A stretch of 52,382 bases of DNA from Candidatus Hermodarchaeota archaeon (GCA_048885535.1 JBHLLO010000015.1:1-52382); one strand, 5' to 3'. Shown: positions 16,265-29,246, counted from the first letter of the stretch. A program made the numbers and translations. Notes: a model not told the origin generated them from the sequence alone.

Positions 16265-16468
16265 ATGTCAACTACATCATTTCAAGATTCAAGAAAAAGA
16301 AATATCCTTCTCATAATTGTAGCTGCTGTAATTGTCATTTCTGCAATAACTTTTGTAATAATTTTATTAGTCTTCTACTATTCTCTTTCTTTCAATGGAG
16401 GGGGATGACCATGTGTGATAATAGTTCATTACACTGGAAAATTAATTCCGAATCTAATATGGGTATGA
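16265..16468 (+). CDS. Putative small single-pass membrane selenoprotein (67 aa; in-frame TGA = Sec48 in GGG-U-PC)
   Basis: MSTTSFQDSRKRNILLIIVAAVIVISAITFVIILLVFYYSLSFNGGG-TGA(16406-08)-PCVIIVHYTGKLIPNLIWV-TGA; post-TGA peptide is conserved, with synonymous changes, in the 17275 copy; SECIS-like element follows. Confidence 0.7.
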
Positions 16469-16515
16469 GTCTTGGGAGAAAATTGTAGTCTCAAGAGGAC
16501 CCACCCTGCAAGGGT
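16460..16515 (+). promoter_or_regulatory. SECIS-like element, copy 1
   Basis: TGGG-TAT-GA-G-TCTTGGGA-GAAAATTGTAG-TCTCAAGA-G-GA-CCCA: K-turn with AUGA/GA core, 8-bp helix, A-rich loop; followed by CCC-TGCAA-GGG hairpin. Confidence 0.72.
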
Positions 16516-16671
16516 AAAAGAAAAATGATATTTTTAAGAATTTCTTTTAAAACATAGTTCTAAAAAAACCGCGAATAATTAAGAAGAATTTTCATATAAA
16601 ATCACAAAATATTTATAAACTATCATATTGTTGATCAATCTTAACCTCTTATTAAAATAGGTGTTTTATTT

Positions 16672-17187
16672 ATGGAAAATAGAAAAATCTTATGTCTTAT
16701 AAGTGGAATCTTAACTCTTGTAGCAACATATCTTTTTGCTTGGTTTGCTGTTGATATAGCAGGTACTGATTATTATGGTCATGGTATAGGAGTGATTATG
16801 AGCCTTCCGAATACATTTACAAATGCAGAAACAATAGCTACTATTTGGGGCGTACCTACTTTCGCTATTTATATTGTAGGAGGATGCCTTATATTCTTTT
16901 TATTTTCAGGAATTATAATATTATTGGGATTAAAGTATCGCATATTTGCAATTATAGGGGCAATAATGCCTATCCTTATATCAATCGCTATTATCTCAGG
17001 TCCTTTTAATGCTCCTCCAAATCTTATAGATTATATATCACTATTTTCGAGTGAAACATTAGGAGGATTTCCTCTAAATCTAGCAATTGGACCATCAGGA
17101 TTCGGAGCTTCTGTATCTCTAGGTAATTATTTATTACTTGGAGGAGGAATTTTAGGTATCATTAGTGGATTTCTACCTAAAGAGTAA
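16672..17187 (+). CDS. Multi-pass membrane protein of unknown function
   Basis: 171 aa with about four hydrophobic, Gly-rich helices; GGTG upstream. Confidence 0.8.
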   Translation: MENRKILCLISGILTLVATYLFAWFAVDIAGTDYYGHGIGVIMSLPNTFTNAETIATIWGVPTFAIYIVGGCLIFFLFSGIIILLGLKYRIFAIIGAIMPILISIAIISGPFNAPPNLIDYISLFSSETLGGFPLNLAIGPSGFGASVSLGNYLLLGGGILGIISGFLPKE

Positions 17188-17200
17188 GAATATATATAAA

Positions 17201-17346
17201 GTGGGAAATTGTAAGAAAAGAAATAAATAATCTTAATTTTTTTTACTCTAAACACCTTACTTGATAATACTAATGGAGGAGGACGACCATGTGCATCAAT
17301 AATGCATTATACTGGAAGATTGATAGCAATTTTAATAAGGATATGA
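17201..17346 (+). pseudogene. Decayed paralog of the 16265 ORF (TGA replaced by CGA; TM region largely lost)
   Basis: GTG-GNCKKRNK-stop, then in another frame NGGG-R-PCASIMHYTGRLIAILIRI-TGA, colinear with copy 1. Confidence 0.7.
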
Positions 17347-17392
17347 GTCTTGGGACTTAATTTTAATCTCAAGAGGATCCACCTAATAGAGG
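17338..17392 (+). promoter_or_regulatory. SECIS-like element, copy 2 (loop degenerate)
   Basis: AGGA-TAT-GA-G-TCTTGGGA-CTTAATTTTAA-TCTCAAGA-G-GA-TCCA-CCT-AATAG-AGG; compensatory G-C to A-T pair next to the bulge. Confidence 0.6.
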
Positions 17393-17519
17393 CAAAAGAA
17401 AAATAATACGTTTAAGAATATCTTTTATAGTATGCTTGATTATTATTCTTATTAACAAAACTCTTTTAAATCCTTAAAACCTCTTAAATTAAATCATTTT
17501 GTTAAATGGTGAAAAATTC

Positions 17520-18317
17520 ATGTCAAAAGAGATTCCAGAAGCCGTTAAAGACGCGCTTCGCAATATAGGATTAACCGATTATGAGATTGCAATCTATCTT
17601 ACTCTTATTGTAAAAGGCCCAATGGATGCTCGAGAATTGTCAGAAGCTTCAGGAGTGCCCTACTCACGTATATATAATATTCTCACACAACTGGAAAAGG
17701 AGAAAATGTGGATAATTAAAGAAGAAGAAAGCCGCCCATCTCGCTATTTTGCCAAATCCCCAGATGAGGCCCTAGTCATAGCCAAAAAGCAATATAACGA
17801 CAGTTTTGATAACTTCTCAAAAAATATAATCCACACACTTACACCTATTTATCAATCTCATGATACTCCAATTAAAATTGCACTATATATACATAGGGGT
17901 AGAGATGTATGTATTAATCGGAGTTTAGCACTTATTAATATGGCTAAAACCGCTATTTATTTAATTGCTCCTGAATATGAGTTTTTAGAAGTTTTTCATC
18001 AGGATCTGAAAAAGGCTCGAGCAAGGGGTGTTACAGATATTAGAATTCTAGTGGAAGAACTAGCCTTAAAGGATGACAAGTTCAAAGAACTACTTAATAA
18101 GTATAGTGAAATATCAGAAATTAAGACTCGAGATCAAGTATTTGGAACTGCAATTATCATGGATGAGGGAGAAGATGCTTTCCTTATTTTAACCCAGAAA
18201 ATTTTTAAAAAACTTAGTTATTTTGGAGCGGTAACTGATCATATTGCTTTTGGACCTGCTGCTAATTATTATTTTAGCTACCTTTATGATACCGCTAAAA
18301 TTGCGAGTCTTAAATGA
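17520..18317 (+). CDS. TrmB family transcriptional regulator
   Basis: LRNIGLTDYEIAIYLTL...ARELSEASGVPYSRIYNILTQLE...RPSRYFAKSP; ATG 17520 preceded by GGTGA. Confidence 0.92.
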   Translation: MSKEIPEAVKDALRNIGLTDYEIAIYLTLIVKGPMDARELSEASGVPYSRIYNILTQLEKEKMWIIKEEESRPSRYFAKSPDEALVIAKKQYNDSFDNFSKNIIHTLTPIYQSHDTPIKIALYIHRGRDVCINRSLALINMAKTAIYLIAPEYEFLEVFHQDLKKARARGVTDIRILVEELALKDDKFKELLNKYSEISEIKTRDQVFGTAIIMDEGEDAFLILTQKIFKKLSYFGAVTDHIAFGPAANYYFSYLYDTAKIASLK

Positions 18318-18347
18318 ACTCACTTTTGAATTTATGTTCATTAAGTG

Positions 18348-18602
18348 TTAAAATTTAATTGAAATGGCTTTTTCAGGACATACTTCTACACATTTAAAAC
18401 AACGCGTACAAACAGATGGCCATATAGCAGTAATTTTCCAATGTTGTGGATCATACACATTTTTTTCTTTATATTTTAAATCTTCATGTCTTAGAAAGAC
18501 ACAAGGATCACATACATTAAGACATTTAGCACATTCTCTTGGATCAACATTACCTTCAGGTCCACATTTTGTATAATCAATCTTGATTTTTGTTTTACTC
18601 AC
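18348..18602 (-). CDS. 4Fe-4S ferredoxin
   Basis: C..ECAKCLNVC and CTRCFKCVEVCP; GGTGA before the GTG start. Confidence 0.88.
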   Translation of the reverse strand: MSKTKIKIDYTKCGPEGNVDPRECAKCLNVCDPCVFLRHEDLKYKEKNVYDPQHWKITAIWPSVCTRCFKCVEVCPEKAISIKF

Positions 18603-18610
18603 TTAATCAC

Positions 18611-19483
18611 CTAAAAATGTCCATTAAAACCATGAAATTCTTGTCTTGGAATAAGCTGTAAAGCATCATTTTTACATGCATGTCGACAAACTCCACATCC
18701 AAAGCATTTATCATAATCGACTATTACCCTTTTAATCGATGGGATATAACGTATTGCATTCCATTGGCACATCGCTACACAAGATTTACACCCTTGGCAA
18801 TTATCTTGGTTTAAATTGATGATATATTCCGCTTTAGACATTATCATGAGATCAAAATCATTCCTTAAACGTAGTGCTCCACACTCAGGGCTTTCACAAT
18901 TACATATTGCATTTATATACGGATATGGTTGATACCATACAGTAGATACTAATCCATCTTTATTATGTTGCTCCATTCTTTCTACTGCTTCTTCTGGAGA
19001 TATTCTATGAGCCCTTTCTTCAGGTATAAATCTCGGAAGTTTCTCTAATACTTCTGAAAGCACACCAAAATTGATGCAAGATTGGTAATTTATTCCACGT
19101 TGCATCTTTCGACACATACAGTACGTTTCAACAATCGGTTCTGCCGCAAGTTTTGAAAGAATAATTTGAGCATCCTCCATCGGTATAACTTGCCCAATAT
19201 GGCCATCAGCTCTTATTGGGTTAGGTTTTCTTATTGTTCCGTGGATCATCCTCTCAACAGACCATCTAAGAATCTTTCCAATTAGTGGTATTTGTAATTT
19301 ATATCCTAAACCTTTAGATGATAATCCAGCAATTTTTCTGATGTATACTGCTTCGAAATTTATCCATTGTTCAGTTAAATATTCACGAAAGGTATCTTCA
19401 TCACCAAGTTCCTTAGCGGAATAATTTTTAGCATTCATGTACCATTTCTTCCCTATTCCATGCTTCATACACCATTTACACAT
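18611..19483 (-). CDS. 4Fe-4S binding protein with extra conserved Cys motifs and C-terminal 2x[4Fe-4S] ferredoxin domain
   Basis: MCKWCMKHG start; YCMCR, ICNC..PEC, CQGCKSCVAMC, CFGCGVCRHAC; start moved from 19714 to ATG 19483. Confidence 0.85.
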   Translation of the reverse strand: MCKWCMKHGIGKKWYMNAKNYSAKELGDEDTFREYLTEQWINFEAVYIRKIAGLSSKGLGYKLQIPLIGKILRWSVERMIHGTIRKPNPIRADGHIGQVIPMEDAQIILSKLAAEPIVETYCMCRKMQRGINYQSCINFGVLSEVLEKLPRFIPEERAHRISPEEAVERMEQHNKDGLVSTVWYQPYPYINAICNCESPECGALRLRNDFDLMIMSKAEYIINLNQDNCQGCKSCVAMCQWNAIRYIPSIKRVIVDYDKCFGCGVCRHACKNDALQLIPRQEFHGFNGHF

Positions 19484-19629
19484 CTTAATCAAACCCAATT
19501 TCCTAATTATATATATCAGTAATAGATTAGACTTTAATTTATTTAAATTTTTTAATGTCATCAGATAAGAACTAATTCTCCTAGTTTGAAGGTTAAAAAA
19601 TTTAAGGTTGATAATATTATTAATAGAAG

Positions 19630-20181
19630 ATGTTTTGTCCAGATTGTGGTGAGGAAATAAAAGATTCAAACCAAGAATTATGTAATAAATGTGGAAGAAA
19701 AATTCTATCTTCAAACAAAATTACTAAGCTAAAAATAAATCAAAATGAATATAAAACTCCTTTAAGTCAAAAATTAAAATCGATGCATGCTAAAGTTCTA
19801 GTTAGCCCACAAGAAGCTACTCTAGAACTATATTCAAAAAGATATTTAGCGGATGGGATTATTTCAATAATAATAGCCGCAATATCACTGTTTTGTGGGC
19901 TTATGGTTACTATATTTTCAATATTGATGGAATTATTCTTCCCATTATCCCCTGGGCAATTTATTATTAGAACAATCATATTAATTATTCTTGTAATTCT
20001 TTATGTTATAGGGTTAATATTTGCATTAGCTTCTAGATCAAATAGTAAAAAATTTGAAAGTTTTAACGCTAAAAATGGTACTCAAAAGACAAGAAAAGTG
20101 TTGTGGATAATAGGGATATTTTTAAATTCGATATTCTTAGGTCTTTTCTTAATAATTCTCGTTATTAGCATACTAAACTAG
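19630..20181 (+). CDS. Zinc-ribbon plus three-TM membrane protein (paralog 1)
   Basis: MFCPDCG...LCNKCG followed by three hydrophobic helices. Confidence 0.85.
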   Translation: MFCPDCGEEIKDSNQELCNKCGRKILSSNKITKLKINQNEYKTPLSQKLKSMHAKVLVSPQEATLELYSKRYLADGIISIIIAAISLFCGLMVTIFSILMELFFPLSPGQFIIRTIILIILVILYVIGLIFALASRSNSKKFESFNAKNGTQKTRKVLWIIGIFLNSIFLGLFLIILVISILN

Positions 20182-20305
20182 TTATAATTCTTTTTTAGAA
20201 AAAATTAAAGATTGGTCTATTAAACTTTTAAGAACAATTTTATCGTTTATTCTTATTAAGAGATAAAATATTTAATTATTAGAAAATTTAATAAAAGGAA
20301 ATAAA

Positions 20306-20890
20306 ATGTATTGTCCAAATTGTGGTGAAGAATTAAGAGAAGCAAATCAAAGGTTTTGCAGTCGTTGCGGAAGCAAAATTTCATCTTCAAATGAAATTGT
20401 TGAATTAGAATCGGAACCAATACAAGAACCAATGCCAGTAGTGCAACAATCAAAACAAATATCCTCTGAAATTCCAGTTAGTCCCCAAAAAACACCAATT
20501 AAAGGTGCTGTAGGACGTTATTCGAAAAAAAGTTTAGCTGATGGAATAATTTCGATAGGTATAACTGTCGTAGCTCTTTATTGTACTTTCGTTGTTTTTA
20601 TGGTTGCTAGAACTTTATCGCCTTACCTTCAATTCTTCAGTTGGAATCCTGCAATTCGTCGAACAGTTTTGTTAACGATCTTAGCAGTTATTTATCTTGT
20701 CGGATTAATATTAGCAAATGCTGCGAGATCAAATAGTAAGAAAGCGAGAAGTTATGAATCCGAAAATGGTGTTCGAAAAGCAGGAAACGTATTGGGGATA
20801 ATTGGGACTATAATTAATGCAATAGGCATAAGTACGATCTTGATAATTCTCTTTACTAACATAGTAAACAATTTTTTCATATACTTATAA
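20306..20890 (+). CDS. Zinc-ribbon plus three-TM membrane protein (paralog 2)
   Basis: MYCPNCG...FCSRCG; shares YSK..LADGIISI and RSNSKK..S...NG..K with the upstream paralog. Confidence 0.85.
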   Translation: MYCPNCGEELREANQRFCSRCGSKISSSNEIVELESEPIQEPMPVVQQSKQISSEIPVSPQKTPIKGAVGRYSKKSLADGIISIGITVVALYCTFVVFMVARTLSPYLQFFSWNPAIRRTVLLTILAVIYLVGLILANAARSNSKKARSYESENGVRKAGNVLGIIGTIINAIGISTILIILFTNIVNNFFIYL

Positions 20891-20953
20891 CATTTTTTTT
20901 GAAGATTATTTAGGATTGAAGAAAATAGAATAAAAATTTAATTTAGATAAATC

Positions 20954-21415
20954 TTATTTAAGAAAAGCTCTTCTGCCTAAAAATATGAAAAGTTCTGCTA
21001 ATTCAAATAATGTAAGCGGATAAACTAGCTGGGCCATATCATTTCTTAAATCTTGTTTATTTTTCCCTGCTGTTATCAACTTTTTAATATCTTCGACATA
21101 GTCATCCATGTTTAAGAATAATATTTCTATCTTGTCAGTACCAGTAAGCTCAGCTATTTCTTTATCAAGATGTTTTTCAACTTGATTTAATAAACCAAGT
21201 TTTAATCTAGGGTCTAAATTGTATTTCTTTATTAAACGGTTCATCTCTTCCAAGATAATATTTAAACTGAGATTCCAATCTTTGTTTTCTTTGTATCTTG
21301 GTATTAATAATTCCCCAATTAATGTCTCAAAAAGAGTTTTTGGAACTTTTTCATCAAATTCAAATTCTATTCCACTAGTTAATTTAACCTTTTGAACCAT
21401 GCTGTCCCTCAACAC
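20954..21415 (-). CDS. Hypothetical helical protein (start possibly at MVQKVK)
   Basis: 153-aa ORF; no family recognised. Confidence 0.7.
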   Translation of the reverse strand: MLRDSMVQKVKLTSGIEFEFDEKVPKTLFETLIGELLIPRYKENKDWNLSLNIILEEMNRLIKKYNLDPRLKLGLLNQVEKHLDKEIAELTGTDKIEILFLNMDDYVEDIKKLITAGKNKQDLRNDMAQLVYPLTLFELAELFIFLGRRAFLK

Positions 21416-21680
21416 AATTTTTTTTTATCTTAATAAATAATAGACTATGTTTTTTTTAATGTTTTGGTATCCATAATAAGAAGATGTTCTAGTTTTAAGC
21501 ATAATGAATTAACACTTCATTTATAACTTATTAAATTGTTATAAAACTCTGTAATAAACAAATTACCTATTTTAAGCTAACTGTGAAAAGGTTTAAAGGA
21601 AAATAGTTTCAGGAGAACTGCGGATTAAGGTTAACTAAATTAAACTTCTGAATAATATAATTAAAAGTAAGGAAGTAGGA

Positions 21681-21814
21681 GAATCGGAAACCACGATATT
21701 TTTAAATTTTAAAAAGAGGAGACGATTTATCTAATAACAGGGTTAAGGGTTGAGGTATTTGAGCCTTCCGGCTTTAGGTATAAGAATATATTTTCTATCA
21801 TGGCTTTCCGACTC
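21681..21814 (-). ncRNA. Candidate structured non-coding RNA
   Basis: 18-bp closing helix GAGUCGGAAA(G)CCAUGAUA / UAUCGUGGUUUCCGAUUC whose mismatches are G-U only on the minus strand; internal AGCC-GGAA-GGCU GNRA hairpin; TTTAAATA box about 30 nt upstream. Confidence 0.5.
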
Positions 21815-21970
21815 ATTGTTGATAGTAAAATATTAACTAAGCTAATATTTAAATGTTTATTTTTTCCTAGGACAAAAAGGAAAATATAGAATTATTGAGC
21901 TAGGAATGAAAGGTTATTAAATTGTCATATTATTAGCTAATGTCAATAACTTCCTCTATCTTCTACTAGG

Positions 21971-22798
21971 TTAAATACATAATTGAAACATTTTTCTTCG
22001 AATTTTCTTAAATACTTTATAATCGAGCTGTATGTCGTTTTGCTTAAGCAATTCCATTATTGCATTTAGAATCATATACTCCCCATATCTTTTCTTAAAA
22101 TGTTTAATAATTCTACCTAATTGTTTCTTTGTTTTAATAGTTGTATTAGCAGGTGGGCTTACCTTTTTCATTATTTCTCCTTTTAATATAACTTTTAAAT
22201 TTCTATCATAAAACCTAGCTATTCTATAACCTGAAAATTCAGTACACAATAACTTCCAGCTAGGAATATTTAAAAAATTAGAGCTACGATAAAAGAAGGA
22301 GCTAAATCTGGATTTGAAAATTCCTCTTTTACTTTTATCTAATAATTTAGAAAAATGTAAGGCGAAAGGGGTTGTAATTGAAACATTCTTTTTAGATTTA
22401 ATTAAATTAATGTAATAAACTCGTCCACCATACATTTTATGTAAAAAACCCTCAGTAGGACTTATTTTTATCCTTCTTTCATCTCTAGGTAATTTTGGAG
22501 ATGCAACACAGGTTCCATTCCCGTGTAATATCCACAGCACATAAATTCCTTTTTGATTATAGTCTTTAGTCCTGTTAATTATCTCTTTAACGGTTATAGC
22601 AGAATTTTGAATCTCTATTACAATCTCTTGATTATTGCTCAATTTAAAATGAATATCTGCAAATCTATTACCAAAATATTTTTCGAGAGATTTTTCAACT
22701 ATATCATTACTCTCGTATACTTTTTGATAAATTAATTCTTTAAGAGTTTTATGAATTCCAGATTCTGCGGGTGAACCAATAAATAAGAGATTTTTCAT
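21971..22798 (-). CDS. CoiA-like PD-(D/E)xK nuclease-family protein
   Basis: ESGIHKTLK...SLEKYFGNRFADI...IVIEIQNSAIT.KEIINRTKDYNQKGIYVLWI. Confidence 0.75.
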   Translation of the reverse strand: MKNLLFIGSPAESGIHKTLKELIYQKVYESNDIVEKSLEKYFGNRFADIHFKLSNNQEIVIEIQNSAITVKEIINRTKDYNQKGIYVLWILHGNGTCVASPKLPRDERRIKISPTEGFLHKMYGGRVYYINLIKSKKNVSITTPFALHFSKLLDKSKRGIFKSRFSSFFYRSSNFLNIPSWKLLCTEFSGYRIARFYDRNLKVILKGEIMKKVSPPANTTIKTKKQLGRIIKHFKKRYGEYMILNAIMELLKQNDIQLDYKVFKKIRRKMFQLCI

Positions 22799-22970
22799 TA
22801 TCTTATTTAAGAATTCTAAATCTTTAAATAAAAAAACAACGAGTTCTAGAATTTCCTGTATCTTTTTTTAAGATAGACAAAAATGGAGAAAATTTAAAAA
22901 ATAGAAAGTATATTTCTTCAATACCCTGAAATCCAAAAAAGTAGTACAAATTAAAAGAGGTAAAAGAAAG

Positions 22971-23279
22971 ATGCTTATTATGGTAACTATATGGTATCCC
23001 CCTAGTAAGGCAATAGACATAGGAAAGATATACCTAAAACAACCTAGAAAAATACCTTATATAGCAAAATGGCGTGCATTTAATACAGCTGGTGGTTTAA
23101 ACGGTTATAAGCAATATCATCTAATCTATACCGAGAGAGGAAAAGGTGAAGAAGCTTTACTAGAAATAAACAAATACTTTCTACCATTTATAGAAATTGA
23201 AGGATTTAATATCCAAGTTGAACCCTTAATAGGGGTTTCAGACAGTTATAAAGCAGCTGGGATGAAATGGGAGAAATAA
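22971..23279 (+). CDS. Small hypothetical protein (ferredoxin-like/DUF3303-like fold possible)
   Basis: 102-aa ORF with GAGGT upstream and a T-tract downstream. Confidence 0.75.
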   Translation: MLIMVTIWYPPSKAIDIGKIYLKQPRKIPYIAKWRAFNTAGGLNGYKQYHLIYTERGKGEEALLEINKYFLPFIEIEGFNIQVEPLIGVSDSYKAAGMKWEK

Positions 23280-23291
23280 AAGAATAAAATA

Positions 23292-23306
23292 TTTTTTTTT
23301 TTTTTT
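23292..23306 (+). terminator. Oligo-T tract, probable archaeal terminator
   Basis: Run of about 15 T starting 12 nt after the stop of 22971..23279. Confidence 0.5.
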
Positions 23307-23390
23307 AAGCTAATTTATTATTATCTAGGTTTACACATCATAAATTTACCTATCTGTCTTGAATTATAAAATAAGATTTTCTATAAATAT

Positions 23391-24101
23391 GTGAGAAATA
23401 TGGTGGACAAACATTCACAGAGCTTTTTTGGACAATCAACAGGTTTAACTGTGATCAGTTCTGCAAAGACAGATCCATACATCTTTTTTAAATGTGTTCA
23501 AAAGAAACCTGACGGAAACTGGGAAAAGCCTTCTTCTGGAGAAGGTAAGACCATAAAATGTAGTTTAGATGAAATAATAATGATATTACAAGTTTTAAAA
23601 AGAAAGGAGAAAAGCTGGTCAGGTTTTCATAGCTTTAAGGACGCAAAAACACAAATTTCATTTAAATGGGATGATAAAGTAAATAATAAGTTAAAGATCA
23701 CCATTGGGAAATACTCAAAAATCTTAAATTTTTCTCAAATTGAGTTATTAAGGCTCTTACTAAAACACATACTAAAAGAAAAAATAAAGTATGCTACAAC
23801 CTCGACTATTTTCGAAAAGAAGGAAAAAGTTGGAATAAGAGTAAAAACTAATAAAGATAGCCCAATAATATCATCCAAAACTGAGAGAGATAAATCATAT
23901 TCTAGTGATAGCGCAAGCCAAATTGAAGGTTCGATTAAGAATGTTACCGAAAAGGCTCTTTTTATTGATTTTGATGGAAAAAAGGAAATATGGATCCCAA
24001 AATCAACGATTAAATCTAACTATAACTCAGAAGATACTACTAATCAATTGTTTTTAATTGATGATTGGATTTTAAAGAAAAATAATTTATTGAATAATTA
24101 A
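23391..24101 (+). CDS. Hypothetical protein, possible Whirly/PC4-like ssDNA-binding domain plus small C-terminal beta domain
   Basis: beta-rich N-domain with W..P..G..IKCSLDEI pattern; C-terminal TEKALFIDFDGKKEIWIPKS motif. Confidence 0.55.
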   Translation: MRNMVDKHSQSFFGQSTGLTVISSAKTDPYIFFKCVQKKPDGNWEKPSSGEGKTIKCSLDEIIMILQVLKRKEKSWSGFHSFKDAKTQISFKWDDKVNNKLKITIGKYSKILNFSQIELLRLLLKHILKEKIKYATTSTIFEKKEKVGIRVKTNKDSPIISSKTERDKSYSSDSASQIEGSIKNVTEKALFIDFDGKKEIWIPKSTIKSNYNSEDTTNQLFLIDDWILKKNNLLNN

Positions 24102-24102
24102 A

Positions 24103-25347
24103 CTAATTTTTAATTCCAATACTGCTTTCGAGTTTTGGAAGGAATTTTTCCTCAAAAATAGCCTTAAGATCATTATTATAATCTATCATTTTTTTTGTTA
24201 TTTCGGGATGAGACAATAATTGGATTTCTGCTTTATCATTTTGGTCCCATAACTGATAAGGTGTTTCTTCATAAGGAACAAGTTGTTTTACTTCATCTAT
24301 CCAATTTTGTGGTAATTCATTTTTTAACTCTATATCTAACATTTTTGCGAGAAATAAAGTCCAAGCTCTTGGTACAACATTCATTAGATATCCACCTCCA
24401 CCAACAGCTATCCATCGATTTTGACAATAATCCCGAACACAACTTCGCATTGTTTGAGCTATGTCTCTATAAACTGAGATTGAGAGCCCCATCTGAGTTA
24501 AAGGGTCATTGAAATATGTATCAACGCCCAACTGTGTAAATAATACGTCAGGACTATATAGTTTTAATAATCTTGGAACTGTGAAGCGGAATAATTTCAA
24601 GAACATTCTATTATTTGTGCCTGGTAAAAGTGGAAAATTGATGGAAAATCCCTCTCCTGGACCATCTCCAATTTCATCAATATTACCTGTTCCTGGAAAT
24701 AAAAATCTTCCACTCTCATGAAATGAAATTTTTAATACATTAGGGTCATTATAAAACAACCACTGAACTCCATCTCCATGGTGACAATCAATGTCTAAAT
24801 ATGCAACTCTTATATCTTTTTTCAGAGCTTTTAGATGTGCAATAGCGACAGCAATATCATTGAAGATGCAAAACCCAGACGCTCTGTCCTTTATTGCATG
24901 GTGCATACCTCCTGCGAGGTTAAAAGCAATTTGAAAATCATTTTCCTTCCAAACTAAGTCTGCTGCTGTAATGCTAGCTCCACACACTAATGCAGATGCC
25001 TCATACATTCCCTTAAAAATCGGGTTATCTCCAGGACCTAAACCATATACATATGCTCCTTTCAATGGTGTGTTAATTCCAGGTATAACTCCATTTATCC
25101 TTGAATCATTGGGATTTTTACTTAATTTTGATACAATATTAACGTAATCACTTGCATGTATTCTTTCTATCTCTTCCTTTGTAGCCATTTTAGGTTCTAT
25201 AATTTCTAACTTTTCATTTGACAAGAGTTCTAATTTTTCCATCAAACTGTATGTTAGTTTAAGCCTTAATGGTCTAAGAGGATGATGAGGACCAAAGTTA
25301 TATGCCTGATATTTATCCGTGTAAATTAGTGCAACTTTTCCAACCAT
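24103..25347 (-). CDS. acuC: Histone deacetylase-family / acetoin utilization protein AcuC
   Basis: HPLRPLR, AGGMHHA...ASGFCIFNDIA, YLDIDCHHGDGVQ, SFHE.G..LFPGTG, QLGVD..F.DPL, GGGGY. Confidence 0.9.
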   Translation of the reverse strand: MVGKVALIYTDKYQAYNFGPHHPLRPLRLKLTYSLMEKLELLSNEKLEIIEPKMATKEEIERIHASDYVNIVSKLSKNPNDSRINGVIPGINTPLKGAYVYGLGPGDNPIFKGMYEASALVCGASITAADLVWKENDFQIAFNLAGGMHHAIKDRASGFCIFNDIAVAIAHLKALKKDIRVAYLDIDCHHGDGVQWLFYNDPNVLKISFHESGRFLFPGTGNIDEIGDGPGEGFSINFPLLPGTNNRMFLKLFRFTVPRLLKLYSPDVLFTQLGVDTYFNDPLTQMGLSISVYRDIAQTMRSCVRDYCQNRWIAVGGGGYLMNVVPRAWTLFLAKMLDIELKNELPQNWIDEVKQLVPYEETPYQLWDQNDKAEIQLLSHPEITKKMIDYNNDLKAIFEEKFLPKLESSIGIKN

Positions 25348-25537
25348 GTTAATTATTAAAATGTATTCTCCTATTAATGTTTTCTAACTGTACTTTTAAG
25401 ATTATCAATCCTCAAAACTTTTTGATAATAAAATTAAAAGGAATGAATGGCATTAGCGCAAATACAAAAAATTATATTATATAAATATCATATAAAAAAA
25501 TAAAGTTATTTTAGAATAGATTATCGTAAACTAATTT

Positions 25538-26104
25538 TTGTTAAAGATAATGAGTCAAAGATTTAGAAAGTTTGTACTTAGAGTTGCAAAGGATAATGAA
25601 TTCCAGCCAATTAAAAATAAATTATTAAATTATTTACAAAAAGAGAGTGAAAATAAATATAAAAATTATCCACTTCTTTTGGAATTAATGAGATCTTACT
25701 GGCCACAGTACAAGAGTGGTTCTAAAATCTCACACCTTTTGAAAGATCATCACGAAGAAATTTTTAATTTTTATCTAAATACTATTTTTCCTTTTAGAAA
25801 ACGAGGTTTAAAGTTTAATAATTGTGAAGCTCCAACTCCAGTTGATTTTAAACTAGAATATTATTATCGATACAACGATAAAGAAATAGCTATTATAAAG
25901 GAAATAATGACACAACAAAATATTGAAGGAAAAGTCGAAAGCGTTTTAAAAAGGCTTTTGATTTTTGCAGTCTCATCATTTAGTCCCCTTGTAGAGCAAA
26001 TTTTTGGAAGACCTTTTGCTTTTCAATTTTCTAGTATTGATGCTGATCAACACGATAATGGGGATTGGGAAATTAAAGCAGTTATATCCGCTAGGGAGCA
26101 ATAA
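25538..26104 (+). CDS. Hypothetical protein
   Basis: 188-aa ORF; no family recognised. Confidence 0.7.
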   Translation: MLKIMSQRFRKFVLRVAKDNEFQPIKNKLLNYLQKESENKYKNYPLLLELMRSYWPQYKSGSKISHLLKDHHEEIFNFYLNTIFPFRKRGLKFNNCEAPTPVDFKLEYYYRYNDKEIAIIKEIMTQQNIEGKVESVLKRLLIFAVSSFSPLVEQIFGRPFAFQFSSIDADQHDNGDWEIKAVISAREQ

Positions 26105-26112
26105 GAAATCCT

Positions 26113-26541
26113 TTATTTAGTTAAATAAGATCCTAAATCCATCACTTCACCGTTCCCTTTTTTCACCCGTATCTTACCTTTAATCCCCTTGACTTTTCTC
26201 TCAAGATATATTATAATGTCTAAAGGAATCCTTCTTGGAACTGAACCTCGCTGTCTTATTATTGCAATTAGATAATCTACATTCTGAATTACATCCGGAC
26301 TAACTAATTGATTGAAAATTTGTTGATATACTATTGGTTCTTTTATTTTTAAATCGTTCAGGTGTGAATACGCGTCAGGAGCTAAAACTGTACGTAATAT
26401 AAAATCAATCTTTTCAGTTAATGAGACTACTCTGTTTTTGATAGTTTCCTCCCTCTTTTTTGCTTCCATAAGTGCTTGCATCTTTTTTAATTTGATCTTT
26501 TCTAACTCATGTTCATCATTATTTTTCTTGTTTTCGTTCAT
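26113..26541 (-). CDS. PDCD5-like double-stranded DNA-binding protein (extended)
   Basis: ELEKIKLKKMQAL...DFILRTVLAPDAYSHLNDLKIKEP resembles the PDCD5/TFAR19 pattern. Confidence 0.6.
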   Translation of the reverse strand: MNENKKNNDEHELEKIKLKKMQALMEAKKREETIKNRVVSLTEKIDFILRTVLAPDAYSHLNDLKIKEPIVYQQIFNQLVSPDVIQNVDYLIAIIRQRGSVPRRIPLDIIIYLERKVKGIKGKIRVKKGNGEVMDLGSYLTK

Positions 26542-26579
26542 TTTAAATCCCTTTGATTAAACTAATGAGTTTAATTAAA

Positions 26580-27497
26580 TTAACTATAAACAATTCTCAA
26601 TGCAATATCTAAAGTTCTGATTCCATCTTCTAAACTTACTAATGGTTTCTTATCATAAAGAAAATTAGTGATCTCTCTTTTTAATGGTTCATCTTCCCTC
26701 AAAGGAGTATATTTAATATCTTGTGTTATTGGCCAATCCCCTTGTAAATCAATACCTTTCCGAATGGTAATTTCTTGCGTTATAAAATCAGCAATTATAC
26801 CTCCTATTTCACCATTTACATATATTCTTCTGAATTTAGAAGGTGTGAGCCAGTTTGATTCGATTTGACCTATGGCACTACCAAAATCAAGAACTATAAA
26901 GGCCGCATCTGCATGATCTGTCTCTTTGAAGCACTTCTTGGCACCAAAAACATTGACTATCTTAGCTCCTCCCATTATTTTTTCCTGAAGATAAATATCA
27001 TGAATAGATAAATCAAGTATAACCCCCATATCCCAATTCCTTCTTGGATATAGACCTACTCTTTTTGATGAAATTGAAATAATTTCACCTATCTCGGGCA
27101 AATTTTTCAATAATTTATCAAACACAGGGTTAAACAGCTCAATAAATCCAGGCATAATTCGGAGATCTTTAAATTTTCTAAAGAAAATTAAATCATCTAA
27201 ATTGAGCGCCATTGGTTTTTCCATTAAAATATCTATACCATGCTGCGCAAATTTTTTAGCGATTACTGGAATTTCCTTGGGAGGTGTAACTATACTTACT
27301 GCTGCAATATCCTCGTTTTTGATCATGGTTTCAACTTCACTATAAGTATTAATATCATCATATTCATCTTTAATCTTCTCTAAATTCTTCTTTTCACGAT
27401 CACAAACTCCAACAAGATTAGAAAGATTATGAAAATTACGAATATGTGCTCTACCGAACCAACCTGCTCCAACTACAGCAGTATTCTTTTTTTTCAT
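26580..27497 (-). CDS. Gfo/Idh/MocA family NAD(P)-dependent oxidoreductase
   Basis: AVVGAGWFGRAH, ILMEKPMA, GFIELFNP, DLSIHDI, SNWLTPSKFR. Confidence 0.92.
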   Translation of the reverse strand: MKKKNTAVVGAGWFGRAHIRNFHNLSNLVGVCDREKKNLEKIKDEYDDINTYSEVETMIKNEDIAAVSIVTPPKEIPVIAKKFAQHGIDILMEKPMALNLDDLIFFRKFKDLRIMPGFIELFNPVFDKLLKNLPEIGEIISISSKRVGLYPRRNWDMGVILDLSIHDIYLQEKIMGGAKIVNVFGAKKCFKETDHADAAFIVLDFGSAIGQIESNWLTPSKFRRIYVNGEIGGIIADFITQEITIRKGIDLQGDWPITQDIKYTPLREDEPLKREITNFLYDKKPLVSLEDGIRTLDIALRIVYS

Positions 27498-27650
27498 TGC
27501 ATCTAAATAGATATTTTATAATTTAGAATAATAACTTGTAAAATAAGAATTTTGTGTTGATTAATAACTTAAATGAAGGAATCTCAATTTCTATAGTAAA
27601 AACATTTAATTCCTTTGATATTGATTGGAATTTCATGAAGGAAAAAATAG

Positions 27651-27800
27651 TCCCTCCTCCCGGATTCTCATCCATTCTTATCAGAAAATCAATTTGAGCC
27701 GGGGACCTCACGGTGTCGGCTGACGTATTCTCATTGGCAAAAACCTCAATACGCGATTAAATCTACAGCCGCGCGCTCTGACCAGCTGAGCTAAGGAGGG
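27651..27800 (-). tRNA. tRNA-Tyr(GTA) with a 37/38 intron (27715..27762) and a T-loop 59/60 intron (27665..27692)
   Basis: Acceptor CCCTCCT/AGGAGGG+A (C1-G72, A73), D-arm GCTC-AGCTGGTCA-GAGC, anticodon stem CGCGG/CCGTG, T-stem CCCGG/CCGGG with bulge-helix-bulge CTCA/TGAG and AAT bulges. Confidence 0.92.
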
Positions 27801-28074
27801 ATCTATATCTTCATTTAACTCTACAATTAATAAATAAAAGAAAAAAGGAATTAATATATTTTTTACTATTTTAAATGAGAAATCGCAGTATTATAGGTGA
27901 TTAATAATTAATAAAAATAAATTTTTTCAATCTTTTCATTTTTAATATGTTATACTACATAATATAAAATATTACATTTTCGCAATATTTTTTAAAGAAT
28001 AGTTAAACTAAATATTTAACAATTAATTTTATATATTTAACATTTGTAATGCAACCAAATAAAGTGTAAGTAGC

Positions 28075-28584
28075 ATGAGAGAAGAAACTGACTATGCTGA
28101 AGCATTAGAAGCCTATAAGGACGATCCATACGTTATTGTTGAACCATGGGGCAGAAGTATTGATCACTTAAGATTAACCATTCTTGGTAAAGATGGAACG
28201 CCATATGCGAAAGGACGCTTCATTTTTGAAGTAAAGTTCCCTGAAAATTACCCTTTTGCTCCACCTTATGCTTATGCTGTCACTTTAATGTGGCATCCTA
28301 ATATTGATTCATCAATACCTCCAGGTAAATTAAATATATGCTTAGATTTGATTAATCCTGATCTTGTGGGGAAAGTAGATGCGGGAACAGGAGCTTCTGG
28401 GTGGACTCCAAGTAAAACCTTGACAAATATCATAGAAGCTTTAAAGATGATGATGCATCTAGATCCTCCTTTCTTTAATCCTGGAGATCCCCTAAATCAC
28501 GAAGCAGGCGAGCAATATTTTAGAGCTCTGAAGAAATTCGAGGCTAAAGCTGCTGCTTGGACAAAAAAGTATGCTATGGATTAA
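28075..28584 (+). CDS. Ubiquitin-conjugating enzyme E2
   Basis: GKDGTPYAKGRF...FPENYPFAPP...WHPNID...NICLDLI...WTPS. Confidence 0.95.
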   Translation: MREETDYAEALEAYKDDPYVIVEPWGRSIDHLRLTILGKDGTPYAKGRFIFEVKFPENYPFAPPYAYAVTLMWHPNIDSSIPPGKLNICLDLINPDLVGKVDAGTGASGWTPSKTLTNIIEALKMMMHLDPPFFNPGDPLNHEAGEQYFRALKKFEAKAAAWTKKYAMD

Positions 28585-28804
28585 GGAGTTCTAAATATTT
28601 ATTATTTTCTATTTTTAATTTTTAAGCTAAATCTTTTTTCCTTTCAGAAAGAGATGATCATAGTTTATAAGTAATAATCAGTTAATCTGGATAATTGCAG
28701 TTAGTTGGTAAAGCTTAAAAACAGGTAAATTAGTAAAGTATAAATGAACACTTTGGTTACTTTTATCTTAAAATTCATAAATAAATTTAAGTGGCTTAGA
28801 TAAT

Positions 28805-28993
28805 ATGAGCAAAGGAAGAAATTCTCTATTTATATTGATAATCATCTTCAGTATTCCTACATTTATTATTTGGCCCTACGTTAATGCCTATTCAGCATGA
28901 GGGCAACCAATGACATTTTTCGATATGATCTATGGTGCGTTATGTATTATTGACGCTTTTTTACTAGTGATGTACGCTCTTCAGAGCAGGTAA
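28805..28993 (+). CDS. Putative small two-TM membrane selenoprotein (62 aa; in-frame TGA = Sec32)
   Basis: MSKGRNSLFILIIIFSIPTFIIWPYVNAYSA-TGA(28898-28900)-GQPMTFFDMIYGALCIIDAFLLVMYALQSR-TAA-TGA; SECIS-like element starts 10 nt after the stop. Confidence 0.65.
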
Positions 28994-29003
28994 TGAATAA
29001 TAT

Positions 29004-29063
29004 ATAAGCCGAAAATGCCTATGAGGAAATGCTAGTCATAGGATGATTATCCCCGCAAGGGAT
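29004..29063 (+). promoter_or_regulatory. SECIS-like element, copy 3
   Basis: ATAA-GCC-GA-AAATG-CCTATGA-GGAAATGCTAG-TCATAGG-AT-GA-TTAT-CCC-CGCAA-GGG: same loop consensus, 3' spacing and trailing hairpin as copy 1, with different stem sequence. Confidence 0.65.
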
Positions 29064-29246
29064 TCGGAGATTATTTTTAAAATGTAGAACCAAGAAACAA
29101 AGAATTATGCCATGGATTTAGGGGATTTAAGTATTCAACATTTTCTATATTTTCTTTTAAAGCTATTAATCCTATTCTCCTTTAATAAGTAGAATTGTAT
29201 AAAAATTAATAAACGACTTTAAAAATTAACCTTCTCTAATAATTTA

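Follow-up and report, generated by a model that had tools for sequence, protein, structure and literature searches.

Candidate membrane micro-selenoproteins served by a eukaryote-like SECIS element in Lokiarchaeial genomes

Introduction

Do some Asgard archaea place selenocysteine (Sec) in membrane proteins of fewer than 70 residues? The question is raised by a stretch of 52,382 nucleotides (nt) from Candidatus Hermodarchaeota archaeon (GCA_048885535.1, JBHLLO010000015.1:1-52382), referred to here as the window, where two short open reading frames (ORFs), each with an in-frame UGA codon, lie between positions 16,265 and 29,063. The window is contig C15 of a genome of 3.09 Mb (112 contigs, 30% G+C). 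An earlier note, made from the sequence alone, had described three copies of one RNA architecture in this region, at 16460, 17338 and 29004, had likened it to a Sec insertion sequence (SECIS), and had proposed that the ORFs preceding the first and third copies encode small membrane selenoproteins of a kind not recognized in archaea.

Our follow-up makes it highly probable that the two micro-ORFs are genuine Lokiarchaeial selenoprotein genes, with UGA decoded as Sec through the eukaryote-like 3′ SECIS of this lineage. Because a conserved in-frame UGA is combined with the same RNA signal that stands behind known selenoprotein genes, the ORFs most likely represent new Sec-containing families that have been cut short by gene callers. 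Judged by their sequences, the proteins belong to no described family and to no published Asgard selenoprotein family, and the decoding signal is of a known kind.

The features that carry the argument are given below. Bit scores refer to a covariance model, R1, built from 19 elements, all of them from genomes other than the window's.

16265-16468, + strand: family 1 gene, 67 codons and stop (from translation)
16406-16408, + strand: candidate Sec codon UGA of family 1 (codon 48), 59 nt before the AUGA of the SECIS, with its kink-turn (K-turn) hairpin about 57 nt downstream
16453-16525, + strand: SECIS copy 1, R1 match of 77.1 bits, E 2.8e-14
17272-17346, + strand: remnant of a family 1 gene, in the ancestral slot between a membrane protein gene and a TrmB gene
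17331-17403 (layout 17338-17392), + strand: SECIS copy 2, decayed, R1 match of 51.7 bits
28805-28993, + strand: family 2 gene, 62 codons and TAA (from translation)
28898-28900, + strand: candidate Sec codon UGA of family 2 (codon 32), with the SECIS about 106 nt downstream
29004-29072, + strand: SECIS copy 3, R1 match of 38.3 bits, E 4.9e-5, the lowest of eight matches in the genome

The RNA element and its distribution

All three copies are present where the earlier note had placed them, with the layout that it described. In copy 1, for which a separate fold gives helices identical to those of the R1 match, TGGG (16460-16463) is paired with CCCA (16500-16503) to form the C-stem of a K-turn. 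The bulge TAT (16464-16466) and GA (16467-16468) follow on the 5′ side, and the 3′ GA is at 16498-16499. The upper stem (5′ strand 16469-16477, 3′ strand 16489-16497) carries an 11-nt loop, GAAAATTGTAG (16478-16488), and a trailing hairpin, CCC-TGCAA-GGG (16504-16514; RNA loop UGCAA), stands downstream. The four nt previously drawn between GA and this hairpin do exist, but they are the 3′ strand of the K-turn C-stem.

Copy 3 begins with ATAA (29004-29007), GCC and GA (29011-29012). The stem CCTATGA/TCATAGG (29018-29024/29036-29042) has GGAAATGCTAG between its strands, and as RNA the 11-nt apical loop reads GGAAAUGCUAG. On the 3′ side are GA (29045-29046), TTAT and the hairpin CCCC-GCAA-GGG (29051-29061; RNA loop CGCAA). 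An outer stem, CCGAA/TTCGG (29009-29013/29063-29067), is also present, and relatives have it too.

When the whole genome was scanned with R1, eight matches had E values of 4.9e-5 or lower, and the next best had E = 1.42. The motif thus stands far outside what chance would give. This weak match (C34:25782-25850) has no core and no UGA-containing ORF on inspection and was rejected. Beyond the three copies in the window, the matches are as follows.

C50: behind VhuD, 53 bits
C28: behind VhuD, 43.5 bits
C34: behind a zinc-ribbon ORF, 41.5 bits
C18: behind VhuD, 40.3 bits
C57: behind the large subunit of a NiFeSe hydrogenase (..YCULSCAAH..), 38.8 bits

The SECIS-like character of the motif is thereby borne out, since a model built on other genomes finds the same element behind three VhuD genes and a NiFeSe hydrogenase gene of this one. 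The three VhuD/FlpD genes (C50, C18 and C28) each contain one or two in-frame TGA codons, and the VhuD 3′ ends comprise AUGA, a 9-position stem, an 11-13-nt loop and GA/AA, followed 4 nt later by a small hairpin, and they have an outer stem too. Within the genus, R1 has three to eight matches in every one of 42 genomes. Forty of these matches were sampled, all below 70 bits and thus outside family 1; 35 are located behind VhuD, three behind a zinc-ribbon ORF and one behind a two-helix ORF (..SLVSUEPP..), while the remaining one is on a truncated contig.

Alignment of 73 elements to R1 provides evidence of covariation. Paired bases occupy 90.8% of cells and both sides vary in 15 of 15 pairs, compared with 0 of 500 shuffles as high and 33-50% for slid partners, although the structure is somewhat favored in these figures because the alignment was fitted to R1. 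The 5′ AUGA occurs in 71 of the 73 elements, copies 1 and 2 among them, and is missing from copy 3. The 3′ core is GA in 69, including all three copies in the window, and AA in four. The apical loop is 11 nt long in 67 elements, ends in G in 72 and has AAA at positions 3-5 in 70. Copies 1 and 3 both have the 9-position stem and the 11-nt loop with leading A's and a final G.

Passages of Mariotti et al. (2016, PMC4989117) describe the lokiSECIS in closely similar terms, with AUGA, a 9-bp stem, an 11-nt loop, leading adenines, an ‘ultraconserved’ final G, and GA, and a model resembling the type I eukaryotic SECIS (eSECIS) is given for Asgard archaea in passages of Huang et al. (2024, PMC11227280). 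The motif of copies 1-3 is this published lokiSECIS or type I eSECIS-like element, and the RNA motif itself is not new.

Simpler searches were also made. A loose descriptor produced 1221 sites and was uninformative in a genome of 30% G+C. A strict descriptor gave 44 sites versus 25-29 in shuffled sequences, and the real ones are only those that have both AUGA and the trailing hairpin. No Rfam family matches the window at its gathering score, and no SECIS family of Rfam matches at E ≤ 10 around copies 1 and 3.

The earlier note had named the Sec machinery as a check on its proposal, and in the window's genome this machinery is complete.

C73: tRNA-Sec, 61 bits
C73: SepSecS, adjoining tRNA-Sec, 486 bits
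C73: EFSec/SelB-like factor, 230 bits, which is 12 bits under the cut-off of the bacterial model
C54: KTI12/PSTK-type kinase, 131 bits
C80: Sec-containing SelD, with one in-frame TGA

TGA is otherwise an ordinary stop codon in this genome, where it terminates 234 of 1610 frames of at least 250 codons.

Family 1: one predicted membrane helix and a candidate GGG-U-x-C motif

The ORF in front of copy 1 begins with MSTTSFQDSRKRN, continues through a transmembrane (TM) helix, and ends with ..SFNGGG-U-PC-VIIVHYTGKLIPNLIWV. Its product would have a basic N-terminus, the single TM helix, the motif GGG-U48-P-C50 and a short hydrophobic tail. The stop codon, TGA 16466-16468, coincides with the UGA inside the AUGA core of the SECIS. 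Both micro-ORFs are, as had been noted, small and hydrophobic with an in-frame TGA ahead of the RNA element. They are unrelated to one another (hhalign probability 0.7%), and neither has a match in Pfam or NCBIfam.

Family 1 was found in 40 of 161 genomes of the class with a single-protein six-frame query, and in 78 of 400 genomes of the phylum with a profile, among them 37 of the 41 other members of the genus and 27 of 54 members of a second genus. Outside the taxonomic family, the profile search of the 400 genomes gave only weak matches confined to the TM helix. A single in-frame TGA is retained in 55 of 56 matches (E ≤ 1.2e-5), the sole exception being copy 2 of the window. At each of 20 loci inspected, TGA is at the aligned GG-U position and a SECIS lies downstream, at a distance of 51-60 nt or, in the second genus, 102-117 nt. 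G47, U48 and C50 are invariant in the 20 sequences. The Cys is found at +2, or at +4 following a two-codon insertion in one subgroup (x-x-x-C), and is encoded by TGT as well as TGC. An AlphaFold2 (AF2) model has a confidently placed TM helix at residues 6-43, a Gly loop holding Sec and a low-confidence helix at 50-66, with a mean predicted local distance difference test (pLDDT) score of 68.

Public databases hold 61 family 1 clusters. All 12 that were read out either end at the TGA or translate it as Trp, and their sources are labeled as hypothetical proteins of Lokiarchaeota, Promethearchaeota, Hermodarchaeota or Hodarchaeota metagenome-assembled genomes. One JGI label, ‘NqrC’, on a 47-amino-acid fragment looks spurious. 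In the public sets P0003, P0004 and P0064-P0067, some sequences take TGA as Trp through Sec codon, stop and SECIS, and others are cut at 46-50 amino acids.

A restart ORF, in which GGAGG before the UGA would act as a Shine-Dalgarno sequence for ATG or TTG in frame +2, was rejected because frame 0 is better conserved than +2 and because group D has a stop in +2.

The usual gene order is FGGY kinase, a membrane protein of 171 amino acids, the micro-ORF and a TrmB regulator. Two of these neighbors are in the window.

16672-17187, + strand: 171-amino-acid membrane protein without a family match, a neighbor of family 1 at 8 of the 20 loci
17499-18317, + strand: TrmB-type transcription regulator (Pfam TrmB, E 1.1e-17), the next gene 3′ of the micro-ORF at 18 of the 20 loci

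The window departs from this order, since the decayed copy 2 occupies the slot before the regulator and copy 1, which is intact, is situated one gene upstream of it.

A decayed paralogue as a natural control

Copies 1 and 2 are identical at 121 of 156 nt in an ungapped comparison and are paralogues, not independent instances of the motif. Copy 2 has CGA (17284-17286) where copy 1 has TGA, and it has no N-terminal ORF. What remains reads ..NGGG-R-PC.., lacks the 5′ part that encodes the TM helix, and in a six-frame match is 58% identical to residues 33-65 with no internal stop.

The stems of copy 2 are intact, whereas its apical loop has degenerated to CUUAAUUUUAA and its hairpin loop to AAUAG, by which the GNRA sequence is gone. 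Loop length is kept; the leading A's are lost, and among the 73 aligned elements no other has an apical loop that fails to end in G. The copy is a dead duplicate, gene and SECIS alike, and serves as a natural control: it has lost its UGA, the final G and the A's of its apical loop, and the GNRA sequence, and it has kept its stems.

The C-stem is altered on both sides, from UGGG/CCCA in copy 1 (16460-16463/16500-16503) to AGGA/UCCA in copy 2 (17338-17341/17378-17381). This two-sided change may mean that the stem was under selection for a time, or it may have arisen by chance.

Family 2: two predicted membrane helices joined at a candidate Sec

The predicted product of the gene with copy 3 consists of helix 1, a turn that opens at U32-G33 (..AYSA-U-GQPMTFFD..) and helix 2 (..FD...G...I..A.L.V.Y). 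A profile search of the 161 class genomes yielded 10 matches, and all 10 have the TGA. Six residues, U32, G33, D40, I48, A51 and Y57, are invariant in nine sequences, and every one of them is at or past the UGA. The AF2 model is a two-helix hairpin (residues 2-31 and 37-59) in which Sec opens the turn, with a mean pLDDT of 87.7.

The six proteins returned by an exhaustive HMMER search with family 2 comprise four with Trp at the Sec site, a single fragment, and a protein with Gly there, possibly through a table-25 reading.

No widely conserved neighbor was found by synteny of family 2. The gene directly upstream in the window (28075-28584, + strand) encodes a ubiquitin-conjugating enzyme E2 (Pfam UQ_con, E 5e-25), and a homologous neighbor is present at one other locus, L101. 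The family 2 member at L101 (G141:C121:12494-12703, − strand) has three TGA codons within seven codons (..QL-U-G-U-G-G-U-YY..) and a SECIS with an AA 3′ core. At L074 (G110:C16), a 73-amino-acid two-helix ORF (999-1220; ..SLVS-U-EPPRS..) precedes a lokiSECIS; judged by its sequence, this ORF could be distantly related to family 2 or could represent another micro-protein family.

Evidence against Sec decoding and alternative explanations

Several observations weigh against the interpretation of these ORFs as selenoprotein genes. In family 1, the ratio of nonsynonymous to synonymous change (pN/pS) is 0.43 before the UGA and 0.89 after it, and the latter value is no different from those of the wrong frames (0.84 and 0.76). 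Between-group amino-acid identity past the UGA is 24.8% in frame 0 versus 21.1% and 16.0% in the others. These figures imply little protein-level constraint on the tail of 13-19 codons, the invariant Cys excepted, and AF2 confidence is likewise low there (pLDDT 52-58). The coding conservation past the TGA that the earlier note called for is therefore weak in family 1; it is seen in family 2, where, for the same nucleotide identity, post-UGA amino-acid identity reaches 41% in frame 0 and only 27% and 25% in the alternative frames.

In addition, Cys was found at the Sec site of family 1 neither in the 12 clusters read of the 61 in public databases nor in the 400-genome profile search, and no Cys homologue of family 2 is among the six HMMER proteins. 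The classical pairing of Sec and Cys homologues, which is usual for selenoproteins and not obligatory, is therefore lacking for both families. Finally, copy 3 is the sole one of the 73 aligned elements without the 5′ GA at the canonical place, and the family 2 gene of the window may be poorly decoded.

The last observation leads to the alternative that survives best, namely that this particular family 2 gene is becoming a pseudogene whose SECIS has lost its AUGA core and whose UGA mostly terminates. The orthologous element at L041/L094 has AUGA, and relative to it copy 3 appears to have undergone a 3-nt deletion; its R1 score is also the lowest in the genome. Nevertheless, the ORF is unbroken and none of the invariant residues has been lost from it, and the loop, 3′ GA, hairpin and outer stem of copy 3 are likewise intact. 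The sequence on which the earlier note drew its K-turn is as described, but the canonical AUGA is absent and the register drawn competes with the outer stem CCGAA/TTCGG. Copy 3 could act via this shifted K-turn, with ATAA/TTAT as C-stem, GCC as bulge and GA at 29011-29012, or it may act poorly. On balance we give ongoing decay of this gene a small but real chance.

A second alternative is that both ORFs simply end at the UGA, yielding peptides of 47 and 31 amino acids, and that the K-turn RNA has another job as an L7Ae-bound element controlling stability or translation, or as a small RNA (sRNA) of the C/D-box kind. The poor coding signal in the family 1 tail and the public gene calls that stop at TGA would agree with this, as would faint matches to the Rfam C/D-box families sR39 (12.3 bits against a gathering score of 50, E 0.69) and sR35 (10 bits against 60, E 3.2). 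However, these matches fall 40-50 bits under gathering and copy 1 has no CUGA D box, and the C/D-box assignment was rejected. Simple termination also fails to explain why the same element stands behind every known selenoprotein gene found here and, in 35 of the 40 sampled matches from relatives, behind VhuD, why family 1 retains TGA almost without exception when this codon closes so few of the long frames, and why family 2 is clearly coding past the UGA. We consider this explanation very unlikely.

Equally improbable is that family 1 is mainly a selenium-sensing leader in which the supply of Sec-tRNA(Sec) would set passage through the UGA and hence expression of the downstream TrmB-type regulator, with the peptide itself of little matter: the micro-ORF does immediately precede this regulator, in the same orientation, at 18 of 20 loci, with a weakly constrained tail and a stop that overlaps or abuts the SECIS, but the part before the UGA is under purifying selection and always has its basic N-terminus and TM helix, the Cys past the UGA is invariant, and in the window it is the copy beside the regulator that has decayed while the intact one has moved off from it.

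Proposed mechanism and role

If the two micro-ORFs are selenoprotein genes, as we favor, the ribosome would pause at the UGA while the K-turn hairpin is still folded downstream. This hairpin would direct the EFSec-like factor with Sec-tRNA(Sec) to the A site, either directly or through a K-turn-binding adaptor. After insertion of Sec, translation would continue for 19 codons in family 1 and for 30 codons in family 2. The family 1 stop codon is inside or just before the SECIS, such that the ribosome would melt the SECIS before this codon enters the A site, and such melting would explain why the second UGA is read as a stop.

On the basis of hydrophobicity, the AF2 models and the positive-inside rule, both products are predicted to be membrane micro-proteins shaped as helical hairpins, whose charged ends would be cytoplasmic and whose Sec-bearing turn would emerge on the opposite side of the membrane. 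The GGG-U-x-C motif of family 1 could form a selenenylsulfide, and in family 2 the turn would be opened by [S/A]-U-G. From topology rules and motif analogy, the likeliest role, which we put forward as a possibility well short of even likelihood, is that of a selenol at the outer membrane face that is redox-active or that binds metal or chalcogen. Synteny of family 1 or family 2 revealed no redox or metal partner, which counts against this role.

Further candidate selenoproteins

Two other ORFs with a lokiSECIS were noted in the course of this work. The zinc-ribbon ORF on C34 (G000:C34; L051:508-618, + strand; SECIS C34:23345-23416) comprises 37 amino acids with CxxC...CxxC and ends ..RFK-TGA, with TAA/TAG following at once. 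Its lokiSECIS is 39-44 nt past the TGA, and three other genomes (L061, L064 and L090) have the same layout. From its sequence, this ORF is a candidate selenoprotein with Sec as its last residue.

The other ORF (G000:C58:18208-18693, − strand) would encode about 160 amino acids without a Pfam match and contains a tandem TGA-TGA (..QPDVGC-U-U-EKVKERL..); its SECIS (L052:180-259, − strand) scores 34 bits. Two or three TGA codons are kept in 45 of 47 six-frame matches in the genus, similarity runs past them, and many genomes have two paralogues.

A trailing hairpin and an outer closing stem

The earlier note had suggested that the hairpin trailing the element may be an extra determinant. The hairpin is conserved, and such a role is a possibility. 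A short hairpin begins 3-4 nt past the 3′ GA in all 73 aligned elements, with 97.7% of its cells paired and with covariation. The loop usually has 5 nt and ends in GNRA in 56 of 73 elements (GCAA in 34, GCGA in 19, GUAA in two and GUGA in one). The type II SECIS of SelD carries a similar GCGA hairpin.

Many elements also have an outer stem that encloses both hairpins. In a flank test (alignment A5), 46 of 73 elements score 7 or more, compared with 17% of cross-paired flanks. The stem occurs in many sequence versions, such as ACUCCC/GGGAGU, CCGAA/UUCGG, AUCCAAA/UUUGGAU and GCUCGAG/UUCGAGC; in the family 1 elements of the genus, copy 1 among them, its pairing is weak and rich in A+U. A first automatic search for outer stems (mean 5.4 vs 5.0) was set aside as confounded, since the hairpin finder entered the outer stem and since flanks rich in A+T form chance pairs. 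Neither the trailing hairpin nor the outer stem is mentioned in passages from the main text, as distinct from figures and supplements, of PMC4989117 or PMC11227280.

These features raise the possibility, which we advance tentatively and hold less likely than its opposite, that the Lokiarchaeial family decodes Sec with a three-helix SECIS, made up of a K-turn hairpin and a GNRA hairpin united by a closing stem, in which the second hairpin is required for recognition or tertiary docking without SBP2. The same tentative proposal has this SECIS serving at least four Sec-only families unknown elsewhere, which would be the TM-GGGUxC protein, the two-helix [S/A]UG protein including its three-Sec variant, the 37-amino-acid zinc ribbon ending in Sec, and the tandem Sec-Sec protein of about 160 amino acids. 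It further has the two membrane hairpins exposing a selenol on the outer membrane face, a role of Sec that is undescribed in archaea.

Comparison with known systems

The elements resemble the lokiSECIS in AUGA, the 9-position stem, the 11-nt loop with leading A's and a final G, the 3′ GA/AA and the location just past the stop codon, and in the window's genome lokiSECIS elements lie behind VhuD, the hydrogenase large subunit and SelD, the last in the type II form. They differ in having the trailing hairpin throughout and mostly an outer stem, and in serving ORFs outside the published families. With the type I SECIS of eukaryotes they share the GA/GA K-turn core, AUGA, unpaired apical A's and a 3′ location acting on an upstream UGA. 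Unlike the eukaryotic elements, they have a shorter upper stem, UGA-SECIS spacings down to 39-60 nt and no Rfam SECIS match. The euryarchaeal SECIS (GAA_A bulge; Methanococcales) is likewise located in the 3′ untranslated region of archaeal selenoprotein mRNAs, but copies 1-3 have, on inspection, no GAA_A bulge between two G+C-rich stems.

In a k-junction, a third helix meets the K-turn at its C-stem. The elements have a comparable three-helix arrangement, with a short C-stem, a further helix following at once and an outer stem closing all. In contrast to a k-junction, a C-stem of 3-4 bp remains here, and the structure may be an ordinary K-turn beside a junction.

SELENOK and SELENOS are very small single-pass membrane selenoproteins of eukaryotes, with a Gly-rich stretch beside a near-C-terminal Sec and no thioredoxin fold. 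The proteins described here are alike in form only, as tiny membrane proteins with a Gly-rich stretch next to Sec. No sequence relation is detectable, and Sec is predicted to be non-cytoplasmic here, placed between two helices in family 2.

Implications for Sec use in Asgard archaea

According to passages of PMC11227280, the published Asgard selenoproteome comprises seven families, all of which were found by homology to known selenoproteins, and passages of a 2026 review (PMC13188914) count 11 archaeal selenoprotein families in all. The Asgard lists in these passages include no small membrane proteins of the present kind, and the words ‘transmembrane’ and ‘small selenoprotein’ do not occur in the passages of PMC13188914. 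Beginning with SECIS elements instead of known proteins, a scan in one genus adds two families of membrane micro-proteins and two further candidates, all of them Sec-only in that the searches made here turned up no Cys relatives. Gene calls that are cut at the UGA (‘hypothetical protein’, 46-50 amino acids) or that render UGA as Trp make such families invisible to proteomics databases.

No SBP2 is known in archaea, according to passages of PMC4989117. The conserved GNRA hairpin and the closing stem provide mutable targets for establishing how a eukaryote-like SECIS is recognized without this protein. Moreover, the UGA-SECIS spacings of 39-60 nt and the presence of a stop codon within the AUGA core are relevant to how the first UGA comes to be recoded when the second is not.

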